Assembly: GCF_053078305.1 (NCBI RefSeq)
Contig: NZ_CP166879.1
Length of the DNA: 64,000 nt
Strand: one strand, 5' to 3'
A program made the position numbers and the translations under genes. Each line of letters opens with the position of its first letter. The first letter of the stretch is position 1. Below are positions 21,305-37,794 of this stretch, one piece after another. The notes beneath the pieces were generated by a model, which was not told where the DNA came from, did no database searches, and saw only the letters and a list, made by a program, of their open reading frames with translations.

Positions 21305-21895
21305 ATGCAGCTTAAACGTGTGGCAGAAGCCAAACTGCCAACCCCATGGGGCGATTTCCTGATGGTGGGATTTGAAGAACTGGCAACCGGACACGATCAT
21401 GTCGCGCTAGTCTATGGCGATATTTCCGGGCATACCCCGGTACTTGCGCGCGTCCATTCCGAATGTCTGACCGGTGACGCCCTGTTCAGCTTGCGCTGCG
21501 ATTGTGGCTTCCAGCTCGAAGCGGCATTGACGCAAATTGCCGAGGAAGGCCGTGGTATTTTGCTGTATCACCGTCAGGAAGGTCGTAACATTGGTCTGCT
21601 GAATAAAATCCGCGCTTACGCACTGCAGGATCAAGGTTACGATACTGTAGAGGCTAACCACCAGTTAGGCTTCGCCGCTGATGAGCGCGACTTCACTCTT
21701 TGCGCTGATATGTTCAAACTCCTTGGCGTCAATGAAGTCCGCTTGTTAACCAATAACCCGAAAAAAGTCGAAATTCTGACCGAAGCGGGGATTAATATTG
21801 TTGAACGCGTACCATTGATTGTAGGTCGTAACCCCAATAACGAACATTATCTCGATACTAAAGCCGAGAAAATGGGTCATTTGCTGAACAAATAA
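21305..21895 (+). CDS. ribA: GTP cyclohydrolase II
   Basis: ORF 21242..21895; likely start at MQLKRVAE giving 196 aa; zinc-binding CxxC..C motif ([18 protein letters not shown]). Confidence 0.9.
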
Positions 21896-25305: not shown

Positions 25306-25589
25306 TGCTAACCTCATATAATCGCCATCACTTATCAGCAAGACGTTGAACGATTGGTGTAATTAATCATACGATGAGACAAATCCTAAAGAAACTTTAG
25401 TCAAAAATCCAGCGAATTTACGAATCGTCTCCAGTGAATAATTCAATCTTTTGACCTGAAATAGATATTTGAAAACTGGAATTTGCGAGGCGGGTAATTA
25501 GACACTACTTTACAGGTAATTTACCCTATAAATATGAGGGATAAAAATATTGTGCACGATATACAAATAAGTAACAAAAGAAAATATAT

Positions 25590-25621
25590 TTCGGCACCTT
25601 CGCTACAAAAAAGGTGCCGAA
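25590..25621 (-). terminator. cysB intrinsic terminator
   Basis: cggcacctt / aaggtgccg hairpin, followed on the minus strand by an A/T-rich tract, 15 bp after cysB stop. Confidence 0.5.
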
Positions 25622-25635
25622 AATAACGCAAGAAA

Positions 25636-26634
<999 letters not shown>

Positions 26635-32737: not shown

Positions 32738-33610
32738 TTAACCGTTATTACGTCCGCCAGAACGACGACCGCCGCTCACCTGACTGTGACGTTTCACCGC
32801 ACGACGAATCTGATTCGCCTTCATGCGACGACGGTCTTTTTCTACAGCGACTTTAGAGCTGGTTTCTGGCGGTAGCTCCACCAGTTCGCGCAGATAGTTA
32901 GTCTGGGCGAGGTCCAGCTCCGTCCAGCCACCGCGTGGCAGACCTTTTGGCAGTGGGATATCACCGTAACGAACACGGATCAGGCGGCTCACCTGCACAC
33001 CAACCGCTTCCCACAGACGACGAACTTCACGGTTACGGCCTTCGGTCAGAGTCACGTTGTACCACTGGTTGATCCCTTCGCCGCCGCTGAACTTGATGGT
33101 TTTAAAAGCTGCCGGACCATCTTCCAACTGCACGCCACGACTCAAATCACGCAGTTTCGCGTCGTCAACCTGACCAAATACACGCACGGCATATTCACGT
33201 TCAACTTCACGGCTTGGGTGCATTAAACGGTTTGCCAGTTCACCATCGGTGGTGAACAGCAGCAGACCACAGGTATTAACGTCCAAGCGACCCACGGCAA
33301 TCCAGCGTGCGCCACGCAGTTTTGGCAGACGGTCAAACACCGTTGGACGTCCTTCCGGATCGTTACGGGTACACAACTCACCTTCCGGTTTGTAATAGGC
33401 CAGAACGCGACAAATTTGTTCAGCGGACTCACGTACCGAAATCAGGTGACCATCGATACGGATTTTCAATCCAGGGGTAACTTCAACGCGATCGCCGAGT
33501 TTAGCAATTTTGCCATCAACACTCACACGACCGGCTTCAATAATAGATTCGATTTCACGGCGAGAACCGTGGCCGGCACGCGCCAGCACTTTCTGTAGCT
33601 TTTCGCTCAT
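32738..33610 (-). CDS. rluB: 23S rRNA pseudouridine(2605) synthase RluB
   Basis: 290 aa; S4 domain, RsuA/RluB catalytic motif ([17 protein letters not shown]), arginine/glycine-rich C-tail. Confidence 0.9.
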
Positions 33611-33822
33611 AGAGCTTCCTTTTGGTGTCGCCTTCCCAGGCGTCTGATATGCTTTTGTGCAACAGTGAGTCAGAACTTACATCTGACTCACTGATAGTAA
33701 AGTCTGTTTGAACTCTTCAGGCCTTAAGTAAACGACTCGACGTTTTAACTGGCCTGGCTTTGAGGCGCAACATACTACACTATCTTTATGGTTAAAGCTT
33801 GTTTCGATTATCATCAGCTTAA

Positions 33823-34473
33823 TTACCAGCCACCACCGCCTCCGCCACCCGCGCCGCCGCCAGCACCACCACCGGAATAACTTCGCCCCAACAAACTGGT
33901 ATTGGCCCCCAGACTCAGGTGCATCTGTAATGAGAACAAAACGCCACTACGGGCAATTTCCGGGGCGCTAACAGCCGCTGTGAGTGATGGGGTGATACGT
34001 GCTACCCATTCTCTTCCAAGGTTTGCTGAGACTGCCCAACCTGGCAACGCGTAATCCAGTTTCCGTGTTTCCCCTTTCCGCCGCCGCCCACTGTGTGTTG
34101 CCGCCTCTTTACGCGCAAGATAGTTAACGATAGCTTCACCGTGGGCATAACGTTGCTGCCCAGTTTGGGTAAACTTTGGCAGAAAAATATACCCCATACC
34201 AGTGAGATAACCGGTCAGGAAAACAGCGCTAAAATAACCCGCTGGCATATACCAGTAAAAGAATACATCTCCGACATTGATATAGAGAGAATAAAAGGCC
34301 ACGCCTGAACAAATCAGCGGTAAAAACAAAGTGATGATTACACGATTAACGCAAGGCTTGTCATCATCGCGGGCAAACAAAAGCTCAAGGGAGCAAAATA
34401 AAAAAGGAAGAAGCCAGCAGATCATAATAAACATATCGCCCATGTAACCAGGTAAATCATTTGATACCGACAA
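33823..34473 (-). pseudogene. yciQ: 3' remnant of membrane protein gene yciQ, truncated by prophage insertion
   Basis: 216-aa ORF with TM helices and glycine-rich C-tail in the position of yciQ (upstream of rluB in K-12) but far shorter than a full-length gene; its 5' side runs into prophage-end sequence; ORF start is a TTG, not a real start. Confidence 0.5.
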
Positions 34474-34747: not shown

Positions 34748-35266
34748 TTACGCTTTGGCTTCTTTATGGGTTAAATTGAAATGATGCTCCTTGGTTTCAT
34801 CTCCCTCGAAAATCTCTCTAACCTTTTGATCTGATAAATTATTAAGGCTCAATGCTGCCAGGCGTCGAATACCTGTTAAAGCGATCAACTCTTGATTCTC
34901 TTGATTGCAGAATTCCAGCAATTTTTCTACCCCTTTCCTTCTCAAGGTGTAAATAACTAATTCTTGCTCTTCTTGGCTCAAAGTGTCGATGAGTTCGAGC
35001 AACTCGCTATTGCCACCGTTCTTTTGAGGGGGCTGGTGTTTTATTTCTGCACTACCTGTAATGATGGAAACAACATGTGCAGGTAAGTCGCTTAAACGGT
35101 AGGCAAATGCTCTCCCTCTGATACCAGGTGTAGTTACCGAACGTTTTTCCCATCCTTCATTTTTTGCTCGTTTATGAAGCCCAGCCAGAGATGAAGGAAG
35201 ACCTCCAACCCCCAACAAGTCACTGGCAAGGATCCATTCTTGGTCAAGGATCATATCAAACTCCAT
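34748..35266 (-). CDS. Mu c-type prophage repressor
   Basis: 172 aa, transcribed leftward ~280 bp from the left end; N-terminal motif LPSSLAGLHKRAK shared with the transposase N-terminus (LPSSLAGLHKKAK). Confidence 0.7.
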   Translation of the reverse strand: MEFDMILDQEWILASDLLGVGGLPSSLAGLHKRAKNEGWEKRSVTTPGIRGRAFAYRLSDLPAHVVSIITGSAEIKHQPPQKNGGNSELLELIDTLSQEEQELVIYTLRRKGVEKLLEFCNQENQELIALTGIRRLAALSLNNLSDQKVREIFEGDETKEHHFNLTHKEAKA

Positions 35267-35483: not shown

Positions 35484-35729
35484 GTGAGTCTTATTGAAGA
35501 TTGGTCTTCCGCCGATATAAAGGCAGCCTTAGAAAAACGCGATACCAATTTGTCACGTTTATCAAGGGAAAATAATTTGCAGCCTAGGACTTTGGGTAAT
35601 GCTTTGCGAGTTCCCTACCCTAAAGGTGAAAAGATAATTGCTAGGGCTATAGGTGTAGAGCCACAGGTTATTTGGCCTACTAGATATGAACGACGTGCGC
35701 GGAGGAAATATGTGGGTTGCAATGACTGA
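35484..35729 (+). CDS. ner: Ner/Nlp-family DNA-binding protein
   Basis: 81 aa; resembles Mu Ner / E. coli Nlp (...LSRLSRENNLQPRTLGNALRVPYPKGEKIIARAIGVEPQVIWPTRY). Confidence 0.75.
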   Translation: MSLIEDWSSADIKAALEKRDTNLSRLSRENNLQPRTLGNALRVPYPKGEKIIARAIGVEPQVIWPTRYERRARRKYVGCND

Positions 35730-37794
35730 ATTGATTTCATTCAGTGACCTACCTAGTTCTTTGGCAGGTCTGCACAAAAAAGCAAAGAGGGAAGCGTGGA
35801 AAACGCGGCTAAAACCAGGGGTAAAAGGGAAAGTTTTAGAGTGTGAAATAGGAGCTTTGCCTTTAACTGTTCAGCAGGCAGTACGCGAACGCCATGCCCT
35901 GCAACTGATGACGCAAAAAGCCGATGAATCACCGGCTCCGGTGGTGACAAAGGCCAGACGCTCACCTGCCGTGGTTGATGCGGTGGAGGCATATCGCGGA
36001 TCACCCCAACTGATGGTCGAACGCCTCAATGCCCTGACTGAAAATCAGCGCCAGGTGGCTGATGCACGAATCGCGATCGTCAGCGAAGTTCTGAAAGTCG
36101 CGCAACAACCTGGTTTCAGCTGTGCGAAGGCTATCCGGTTTATCGTTGACAACCTGGCACGTTCGCAGTTGGACGAGCGCATTGTGGCAATGGTTGAGAC
36201 GGCGAACGCCAAAAAGGGAAACAGCCGCGCGTTAAGTGAAATCACGCTGAAACGCTGGATTGCGGCCTTTAACAAGGCGCAGAACGCCGCTGAACGCCTG
36301 CTTTTACTGGCACCGGGTAAGCGCCAGGAAATAAAAGCCGAAGATATTAACTGGCTGCCCGAATTTCTGGCGCAGTATCGCCAGTCAAACGGCCGACCAA
36401 TGACCGAGGCTTACGAGGATTTTGTCGCTGAATGGCAGCACCGGCACGCCGATGAGCCTTATATGCTCGATATCATGCCGTCTTATGACACCATTCGCCG
36501 CGCAATGAAGAAACTGCCGGAAGTGGTGAAACAAAAAGGCCGGGTGACCGGCAGTGAATACCGCCAGCTTGAGGGATTCACGCGCCGCGACTGGTCAAAA
36601 ATGCCGGTGAATTATGTCTGGATTGGTGACGGTCACGGCATGAAGCTGAAATGCGCACACCCGGTTCACGGTCGGCCATTTGCACCGGAAGTGACCTTTG
36701 TTATCGACGGTGGCACGCGCTTTGTGGTGGGCTGGAGCCTTGACCTGGCTGAAAATGTTTTCGCCGTAGCCGGTGCCATACAGCACGGCATTCGCCATCA
36801 CGGCAAACCGTTTCTGTATTACTCGGATAACGGCTCCGGGGAAACCGCCGACATCCTGGATAAGGAGGTTGTGGGGATACTGCCGCGACTGGGGATTAAT
36901 CACCCGACCGGGATTGCCGGTAATCCGCAGGGACGAGGCATTATCGAACGGCTTAACCGCACATTACCGATGCGCATAGCCCGTAAATACCGCACCTATT
37001 TCGGGAAAGGTGCAGATCGCGAGACGTTACGCAAAACCAACCGCGATTTACGCTCGGCATTTACTGCCCTGCAACAGGGCAAACGGCTGAACGCCCGGCA
37101 GCAGTCAGCGATGCGTGATTTACCGTCCTGGTCTGAACTGATTGATGCCATTCGTGACGGTGTTGAGTGGTACAACAACCGGCCGCACGATGAATTACCG
37201 GTGAAGCCGAACGGCAAGCATTACAGCCCGGCGGAGTTCAGAAAAAAACGCCTGGCGGAAGAGGACACGGAAATTGAATGGCTGTCCGATGTTGAGCTGC
37301 GGGATATGTTCCGGCCGATGGTGGAACGCCCTGTAAGACGCTGTGAAATACGCTGGCTGAATAATATTTACTACGCGCCCGAGCTGCGTGACGAGCATGG
37401 TCGTAAGGTGCTTATCAGCTATGACATTCATGATGCCGAACGAATTACCGTACGTCGCCTGGATGGCAGCGTGATTTGCGAGGCGGTATGGGACGGTAAT
37501 AAACGCGAAGCCTTCCCGGTTAGCGCGGAATACTACAAACAGCAGCAACGCCTTAAAGGCATGCGTAAACGCGCAGAGGAAAAAATCCGTGATGCCGAGG
37601 ATGAGGTTGTCAACGTGCTGGAGCACAAGCCGCAGGAGCCCTGGCTGGAAAACATATACCGCCCTGTGGGTAATACGGTGACCGTTCAGCAACCGGTCGC
37701 TGACGATGAACCTGATGAAGAATACGAGCGTAATTTCCAGCGGGGATTGCAGTTGCTGGAAGCGAAATTAAAAGAAAATGACCCGCTGGCCTGA
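35710..37794 (+). CDS. Mu-type DDE transposase (MuA-like)
   Basis: ORF 35686..37794; N-terminal repressor-like DNA-binding domain; DDE core (WIGDGHG, YYSDNGSGE); start codon ambiguous. Confidence 0.9.
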   Translation: MWVAMTELISFSDLPSSLAGLHKKAKREAWKTRLKPGVKGKVLECEIGALPLTVQQAVRERHALQLMTQKADESPAPVVTKARRSPAVVDAVEAYRGSPQLMVERLNALTENQRQVADARIAIVSEVLKVAQQPGFSCAKAIRFIVDNLARSQLDERIVAMVETANAKKGNSRALSEITLKRWIAAFNKAQNAAERLLLLAPGKRQEIKAEDINWLPEFLAQYRQSNGRPMTEAYEDFVAEWQHRHADEPYMLDIMPSYDTIRRAMKKLPEVVKQKGRVTGSEYRQLEGFTRRDWSKMPVNYVWIGDGHGMKLKCAHPVHGRPFAPEVTFVIDGGTRFVVGWSLDLAENVFAVAGAIQHGIRHHGKPFLYYSDNGSGETADILDKEVVGILPRLGINHPTGIAGNPQGRGIIERLNRTLPMRIARKYRTYFGKGADRETLRKTNRDLRSAFTALQQGKRLNARQQSAMRDLPSWSELIDAIRDGVEWYNNRPHDELPVKPNGKHYSPAEFRKKRLAEEDTEIEWLSDVELRDMFRPMVERPVRRCEIRWLNNIYYAPELRDEHGRKVLISYDIHDAERITVRRLDGSVICEAVWDGNKREAFPVSAEYYKQQQRLKGMRKRAEEKIRDAEDEVVNVLEHKPQEPWLENIYRPVGNTVTVQQPVADDEPDEEYERNFQRGLQLLEAKLKENDPLA

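Follow-up and report, generated by a model that had tools for sequence, protein, structure and literature searches.

A palindrome upstream of rluB traced by sequence comparison to the end of a decayed integrative island

Comparison of rluB loci across the Enterobacterales shows that a long palindrome just upstream of rluB, found in a 64,000-nucleotide stretch of DNA (hereafter the window), is a conserved stem-loop from the end of a decayed integrative island, and is a scar rather than an element native to rluB. Island junctions compared in the same way show that a family of islands with a tyrosine recombinase of ~555 aa inserts into the rluB leader at GACGCCTG(T/G)GAAGGCG. Taking origin and mechanism jointly, we think it probable, with considerable room for doubt, that an island inserted in the leader has decayed to a scar and a stem-loop that is now kept as a hairpin in rluB-sense RNA. 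The 210-bp spacer between yciQ and rluB in K-12, and probably yciQ too, would accordingly be reassigned as the remains of an integrative island, and the rluB leader hairpin would become an integration site for islands with defence-like and phage-like cargo across the Enterobacterales. We judge the significance of the palindrome itself to be moderate to low, and that of the attachment site with its leader hairpin to be somewhat higher.

The palindrome lies between the rluB start and the remnant of yciQ, as the original prediction had placed it: downstream, 52 nt separate it from the rluB ATG (33610), and the yciQ stop codon (33823-33825) is 130 nt upstream (Table 1). A repeat search of the window found two arms of 12 nt (33663-33674 and 33682-33693), 100% complementary and 7 nt apart, reading CAGTGAGTCAGA-ACTTACA-TCTGACTCACTG on the plus strand; the hairpin first described as near-perfect is thus in fact a perfect 12-bp inverted repeat, and the earlier parse (loop of 8 nt, 3' arm of 11 nt) was slightly off the true 12-7-12 form. 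As rluB-sense (minus-strand) RNA it has a predicted dG of -20.1 kcal/mol, compared with -8.7 +/- 2.4 for shuffled sequences (z -4.7; 0/200 shuffles as stable). The 64-kb window has just one other perfect 12-bp hairpin with a loop of 3-10 nt; our own estimate of the chance expectation for such hairpins is ~0.03 (64000 x 8 / 4^12). That second hairpin, at 25589-25622 (TTCGGCACCTT...AAGGTGCCGAA), has A/T-rich flanks, stands just past the end of a 324-codon ORF (25636-26610) and looks like an ordinary terminator. The claim that no T-tract adjoins the rluB palindrome was also correct: the stem is followed by TTGCACAAAAGC in the rluB-sense direction and by ATAGTAAAGTCTG on the opposite strand, and a terminator scan of 33400-34000 returned nothing. 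An Rfam 15 scan of 33300-34100 gave chance-level snoRNA and miRNA matches only (<=18 bits).

Two further structural readings were discarded. The palindrome occurs at a median of one place per genome and at two at most, which rules out a repetitive extragenic palindrome of the REP/BIME type, for which many copies are needed; and a longer helix pairing 33693-33708 with 33769-33784 is unsupported, one of its arms being changed in the L005 allele with no compensating change in the other.

Table 1. Positions of features of the rluB-yciQ interval in the window
Feature	Position	Strand	Description
rluB	32738..33610	-	23S rRNA pseudouridine 2605 synthase; ORF; RefSeq annotation of identical DNA
rluB Shine-Dalgarno AAGGAAG	33615..33621	-	read from sequence; conserved among loci
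31-bp block AAAAGCATATCAGACGCCTGGGAAGGCGACA	33626..33656	-	identical to the direct repeat flanking the 13.1-kb island of Z1323CEC0012
att core / rluB leader hairpin GACGCCTGGGAAGGCG	33629..33644	-	stem GCCU/AGGC, loop GGGA; duplicated at the ends of intact islands
extended -10-like motif TGATATGCT	33645..33653	+	faces away from rluB; TGGTATACT in active islands
palindrome	33663..33693	-	perfect 12-bp stem, 7-nt loop; relic of the stem-loop of the integrase-proximal att arm
island integrase fragment (pseudogene)	33764..33822	+	ggcgcaacatactacactatcttt = G-A-T-Y-Y-T-I-F, compared with intact M-I-R-G-R-T-Y-Y-T-N-F
TAGTAT -10-like hexamer	33772..33777	-	directed toward rluB, with a GC-rich block after it; in 7/7 relic spacers T1, A2, A5 and T6 do not vary
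yciQ 3' remnant (DUF2207)	33823..34445	-	residues 426-631 of a 631-residue protein; truncated by a Mu-like prophage

Islands inserted at the rluB leader hairpin

We compared 84 rluB loci, 80 of them representing species of Enterobacterales, and found GACGCCTG(T/G)GAAGGCG upstream of rluB in every one (84/84). Its offset from the RBS-linked start is 29-43 nt, and larger in most Yersinia, where the protein has an N-terminal extension. The core folds as a GCCU/AGGC stem closed by a GUGA or GGGA loop. Sequence directly 5' of it is variable: the distance from yciO to rluB ranges from 89 to 2174 bp among the species loci, and the ORFs encountered there are mutually unrelated and include a HEPN protein (HEPN_LA2681) and regulators of the PRD/Mga type. 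With the island-bearing loci included (L005-L084, L085, L086 and L093; gap 89-2174 bp or more), the yciO-rluB spacer has the appearance of an integration hotspot.

The leader hairpin, GACGCCU[G(U/G)GA]AGGCGAC (33626-33644 of the window, minus strand), stands 3-4 nt upstream of the rluB ribosome-binding site; its loop fits GNRA in 80/80 species loci, and it has no match in Rfam. It may resemble the 23S rRNA helix modified by RluB. Besides forming the attachment core of the islands, it may regulate rluB as an RNA element. A near-copy of the core, GGCGCCTGGGAAGGCG, occurs ~1.2-1.4 kb upstream of rluB in two species (L022 1777-1792; L073 1579-1594), apparently within a conserved gene, and could be due to chance or be a secondary attachment site.

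Intact islands of 9-13 kb with a tyrosine integrase were identified between yciO (or yciQ) and rluB in E. coli A17, H15 and Z1323CEC0012 (Z1323 below). Each is flanked by direct repeats of 16-31 bp containing the core, and each carries its own copy of a stem-loop, CAGTGAGTTA-N15-TAACTCGTTG, which is separated from the core by 17-18 nt and located on its integrase side. In A17 the flanking repeat is an exact 16-bp sequence, GACGCCTGTGAAGGCG, whose copies are 9118 bp apart; the sequence to the left of attL is a complete ancestral spacer, and to the left of attR are the integrase and the stem-loop. Since the ancestral spacer is retained whole at attL, the stem-loop at attR is island DNA, and the A17 boundaries thus assign the conserved leader hairpin to the att core and the stem-loop to the island. 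The ~9-kb island of H15 has two core copies and the same layout, and the cargo of both includes DUF4238, RelA/SpoT-domain, resolvase and YagK/YfjJ proteins.

The arrangement in Z1323 brings an island and the palindrome of the window together at one locus, in the order yciQ, K-12-type spacer with the window's palindrome, 13.1-kb island, rluB. Among the products of this island are a helicase and proteins resembling tape-measure and tail-fibre proteins, and its integrase gene is frameshifted; its 31-bp flanking repeat, AAAAGCATATCAGACGCCTGGGAAGGCGACA, occupies L093 8286-8316 and 21416-21446. At the left junction (attL) the K-12 palindrome stands 18 nt from the core; at the right (attR) the island's own stem-loop, CAGTGAGTTAgcttgatatttatctTAACTCGTTG, stands 17 nt from the core and is followed by the same AAAAGCATATCA. 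The stem-loops of the A17 and Z1323 islands (L085 21643-21677 and L093 ~21377-21411, respectively) have the same offset from the core as the palindrome in the window. The insertion of the Z1323 island beside a K-12-type relic indicates that the relic core is still usable as attB.

Similar ends occur outside E. coli. At a Kosakonia locus (L041) and an Erwinia locus (L054), a tyrosine recombinase of ~555 aa starts ~20 nt from a CAGTGAGTTA-N15-TAACTC(A/G)TTG stem-loop, itself 17 nt from the conserved core sequence; an intact recombinase of this size adjoins the stem-loop at these two loci and in A17 and H15. Pfam, NCBIfam and PHROG matches confirm its assignment as a tyrosine recombinase. A tblastn search of 50,697 phage records returned no match to the island integrase, so there is no known phage att site for comparison.

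Further motifs recur at the island ends. The sequence GTGTGACA is found twice at the right core (-112 and -100 from it) and once after the left, attL core (+85/86) in A17, H15 and Z1323, and five further genera share the tandem pair. A motif fitting the IHF consensus (WATCAANNNNTTR) perfectly lies 27 nt after the attL core, as AATCAATGAGTTA in A17 and AATCAATAAGTTA in Z1323. Arms of the stem-loop also approach that consensus, both with at most one mismatch in Z1323 and L041 and only the core-proximal arm in A17 (~0.075 such matches are expected per arm); from this resemblance of the two arms to IHF sites, the same DNA is probably also used in recombination. In the window the palindrome arms do not fit the IHF consensus, and the GTGTGACA and IHF motifs are absent or decayed. 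At the core boundary, TGGTATACT (TGATATGCT in the window) faces the integrase and is a candidate promoter for it; our promoter scan is silent on TGATATGCT because it requires a -35 match.

The scar in E. coli and its older relatives

Conservation had been proposed as a check on the palindrome, and the result is divided. A 341-nt query spanning the spacer is covered in full in 3974/5426 complete E. coli genomes, which carry the palindrome; in ~940 further genomes the match extends only from ~33644 of the window toward rluB, and genomes of this type have no yciQ at all, yciO being followed by a 100-bp spacer and then rluB. This 100-bp yciO-rluB spacer is fully present in 1442/5426 complete genomes, from which the palindrome is absent, giving shares of ~73% for the scar and 27% for the shorter arrangement. 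Spacers of E. albertii and Citrobacter are nearly identical to the 100-bp E. coli spacer, and we therefore regard the latter as the ancestral state. These and other taxa outside E. coli have, at the equivalent position, a hairpin unrelated to the palindrome; in the ancestral E. coli spacer it reads AATGGCGCT-atac-GGCGCCATT and lies 13 nt upstream of GACGCCTG(T/G)GAAGGCGAC, the sequence common to both arrangements.

The remaining part of the window spacer retains traces of an island end. A fragment of the island integrase is recognizable by blastn (25 nt, 92%, E 2e-5, compared with an island), and three blocks, namely this fragment, the 5' arm of the stem-loop and AAAAGCATATCA, are collinear with the island arms at matched spacing. 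A 19-nt stretch of the relic spacer (33705-33722) also matches the integrase coding region of A17 (L085 21408-21426) in inverted orientation (94.7%, E 0.003), a hint of rearrangement as the island decayed.

Relatives of YciQ extend the record further back. E. coli YciQ sequences share 90% identity or more with one another, and identity drops to 50-56% in the next relatives; these lie between yciO and rluB in genomes of the Klebsiella oxytoca group and in metagenome contigs (L094, L097, L100, L101 and L104). A Serratia homologue with 38% identity is located elsewhere. In the window itself, the 216-codon ORF at 33823-34473 matches YciQ residues 426-615 at 91% identity and then runs on to a stop. 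The yciQ-rluB spacers of the relatives align with that of the window, so that an orthologous relic spacer stands beside each yciQ, and every one aligned contains an integrase-derived block, a TAnnAT hexamer (TAGTAT, TATGAT, TAATAT or TACCAT) and a GC-rich tail. All have a hairpin at the same place, with arms that are quite different (e.g., ACATGGCGTTA/TAGCGTCATGT, followed by UUUUU and AGUAUACCA). The TAGTAT of the window is a candidate outward promoter for rluB; the TAnnAT hexamer is the reverse complement of the integrase codons R-T-Y-Y-T. From its position and distribution, yciQ is probably surviving cargo of the decayed island, an origin that would explain its presence in only ~3/4 of E. 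coli.

These comparisons indicate the following course of events. On integration, the native promoter-side spacer stays at the far end of the island (attL), and the integrase-proximal arm comes to abut rluB (attR). In an ancestor of most E. coli such an island decayed, its integrase cut to a ~60-nt fragment and attL lost together with the native spacer, and yciQ was probably left behind as its cargo. The stem-loop would now lie in a transcript feeding rluB, through either read-through from yciQ or the candidate TAGTAT promoter of the relic, and would have been kept as an rluB-sense RNA hairpin, replacing the unrelated hairpin that native leaders have 7-13 nt upstream of the core.

Pairing, present role and competing explanations

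Conservation of pairing was assessed in 25 homologues, using 14-nt arm windows aligned by hand and loops replaced by a fixed tetraloop. Pairing cells amounted to 81.7%, compared with 25-49% when partners were slid, and 10/14 pairs had changes on both sides; 0/500 shuffles reached the observed values, a control that overstates significance since the sequences are related and the arms were picked by eye and hand-aligned. All three E. coli alleles keep the stem positions paired throughout: the K-12 type is perfect, that of L005 has two compensatory pairs and one G·U, and that of L092 has one G·U. The K-12 allele does not vary among six strains sampled across the range of identity, apart from one C-to-T change that gives a G·U. 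The occurrence of conserved blocks beside arms that change freely yet remain paired suggests constraint.

Among the central 10 pairs, read on the rluB-sense strand, 195 cells are Watson-Crick, 32 are G·T or T·G and 3 are A·C or C·A. By our own count the G·T cells fall into about nine column-and-type classes, compared with two for A·C, and the bias is therefore not one inherited event. A bias of this kind is expected of pairing in single-stranded RNA of the rluB direction and not of a double-stranded protein site; it favours an RNA hairpin in rluB-direction transcripts, and in this respect the structural role that had been raised as a possibility gains support.

The most serious competitor, to which we give an appreciable but clearly smaller chance, treats the palindrome as a fossil in DNA: its arms would be sites for recombination proteins (IHF-type bending, integrase or an excision factor) in living islands and functionless in the window. 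Paired changes need not reflect selection, as template-switch correction of quasipalindromes, known at mutational hotspots in E. coli, can produce them, and on the fossil explanation the symmetry would have arisen by such correction at replication. The shift from an imperfect 10-bp stem with two G·T pairs in islands to the perfect 12-bp stem of the window is of the sort that this process could yield, copying changes from arm to arm; it leaves the strand bias of the mismatches unexplained. Several properties of the islands fit protein sites in DNA. The 12-nt arm motif occurs once more, unpaired, in the other island arm, as a perfect match to the IHF consensus; the arms of Z1323 and L041 are, as noted above, within one mismatch of it; and among active islands of different genera the arm sequences are conserved and the loops variable. 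The departure of the window arms from the consensus is expected of a disused site, and two relics (L042 and L043) have lost the stem-loop, retaining a 4-bp hairpin only, which indicates that it is dispensable. Against these stand the 32 G·T to 3 A·C cells on one strand, where a double-stranded protein site predicts roughly equal numbers, and the long integrase-less relics (Klebsiella type, L045 and L029), which keep a stable hairpin with different arms, more than neutral decay would leave. The inverted orientation of the arms, ~25 bp from centre to centre, is moreover unusual for two IHF sites.

A current role for the stem-loop as an RNA hairpin serving rluB is thus plausible from the pattern of substitutions. 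In active islands and Klebsiella-type relics a U-tract follows the hairpin, whose probable function there, in front of the rluB leader, is termination, insulation or attenuation; because the E. coli copy has lost its U-tract, it is more likely to have a stabilizing or insulating part than to terminate. For the rluB direction, scans with σ70 promoter and terminator consensus sequences gave no hit in the spacer of the window, in the A17 arm or in the ancestral spacer. Adams et al. (2021) list no Term-seq 3' end at K-12 ~1326769-1326799, where low expression of yciQ could hide one, and place Rho-sensitive sites elsewhere; the rluB terminator, at 1327761, is among their entries. The Term-seq result argues that the E. 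coli hairpin is not a strong terminator. Supplements of the ROSE, Cappable-seq, SMRT-Cappable-seq and EDL933 studies have no entry for rluB, yciQ or these coordinates.

A more elaborate version of the RNA role, which we offer tentatively and think rather unlikely, is that the islands bring a substitute leader for rluB, composed of an outward promoter in the first integrase codons (TAnnAT plus the GC-rich block) followed by the stem-loop. After integration rluB would be expressed from island DNA, and in E. coli and the Klebsiella oxytoca group this borrowed leader would have become the lasting control region of the gene. As a linked possibility, the att core, GACGCCU[GNGA]AGGCGAC, may regulate rluB, perhaps by mimicking the 23S rRNA helix modified by RluB, and islands may exploit the leader hairpin because it cannot change. 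Were this true, an element that severs a gene from its promoter would keep the host gene running.

It is improbable that the palindrome is an intrinsic terminator or 3'-end stabilizer of the gene upstream, meaning yciQ here and island genes in live elements. Such a part is suggested by a strong stem (12 bp, -20.1 kcal/mol) at 130 nt from the yciQ stop, by the UUGUUUUUG or UGUUUUUCG that follows the stem in island and Klebsiella-type homologues, and by a canonical terminator-like hairpin at the same position in native leaders of Enterobacter. In the window, however, the stem is followed by UUGCACAAAAGC with no U-tract, the terminator scan is negative, and Term-seq has no 3' end at the palindrome though it lists that of rluB. 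The adjoining integrase of the islands is transcribed away from the stem-loop, which is accordingly not its terminator, and an efficient terminator at this place would silence rluB, given that no clear promoter lies downstream.

The idea that the palindrome is itself a recombination core of the loxP/FRT type has very little left to recommend it: the 12-7-12 geometry matches, and a tyrosine-recombinase island family uses the locus, but the island junctions reject it, since what the islands have in duplicate at their ends is the GACGCC core, at a distance of 17-18 nt, and not the palindrome, and the spacer between the arms in active islands, at a variable 15-18 nt, fits an overlap region poorly. 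No better placed is the idea of a native regulatory hairpin that arose at this locus within E. coli, or of a palindrome formed by chance. The location in the rluB 5' region speaks for it, but it is countered by the ~0.03 expected by chance per window, by absence from the ancestral spacer common to 27% of E. coli, E. albertii and Citrobacter, and by homology to island-carried sequence.

Relation to known systems and surroundings of the locus

The ends of the islands are similar in several ways to lambda-type attP, attL and attR sites, with their arm-type Int sites, IHF sites H1, H2 and H', and short core. In the islands a core is duplicated at both ends, an integrase gene lies at one end, the 8-9-nt motif GTGTGACA is present on both arms, matches to the IHF consensus lie to either side of the core, and the palindrome occupies the integrase-proximal arm. 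They differ in having an integrase with no match in the 50,697 phage records, and in that the IHF-like motifs form an inverted pair able to fold as a hairpin; the window, for its part, holds an integrase-less scar.

The closest biological parallel appears to be the dusA-associated integrase islands, which Farrugia et al. (2015; PMC4482086) describe as diverse, with only a tyrosine integrase in common and widely varying cargo, and as inserting at a single conserved position at the 5' end of a housekeeping gene for RNA modification. Both groups target the 5' end of such a gene, but the rluB islands enter the untranslated leader and not the 5' end of the coding region; the likeness is one of layout. 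As a stable sense-strand stem-loop between co-directional genes, the palindrome also resembles intrinsic terminators and the stem-loops that stabilize leaders or intercistronic regions, but the U-tract present in most homologues outside E. coli, and any mapped 3' end, are missing from the window copy.

The kind of feature is thus known, and this particular site appears to be undescribed. In our searches of the literature we found no description of the rluB leader as an attachment site, nor of the K-12 yciQ-rluB spacer as an island scar; one preprint uses yciO as a marker locus only. Neither rluB, yciO nor yciQ is listed in the defence-island hotspot tables of Hochhauser et al. (2023). The case serves as a warning that conserved hairpins adjacent to genes can come from mobile elements and not only from locally evolved regulators.

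Other features were observed around the locus. A promoter-like sequence, TCAACA-17-AATAAT (window 33516-33544, plus strand; L001 1601-1629), lies within the first 100 nt of the rluB coding region; it is antisense, points to the leader and palindrome, and strains with the ancestral spacer have it as well. The Rho-sensitive antisense signal that Adams et al. (2021) report within rluB is at a different position, 1326939. On the other side of the spacer, the Mu-like prophage inside yciQ extends from ~34445 to 64000, with its far end beyond the window, and includes a repressor-like ORF (34748-35266, minus strand), a ner-like ORF (35484-35729) and a 702-aa transposase-like ORF (35686-37794), downstream of which follows a long run of plus-strand ORFs.
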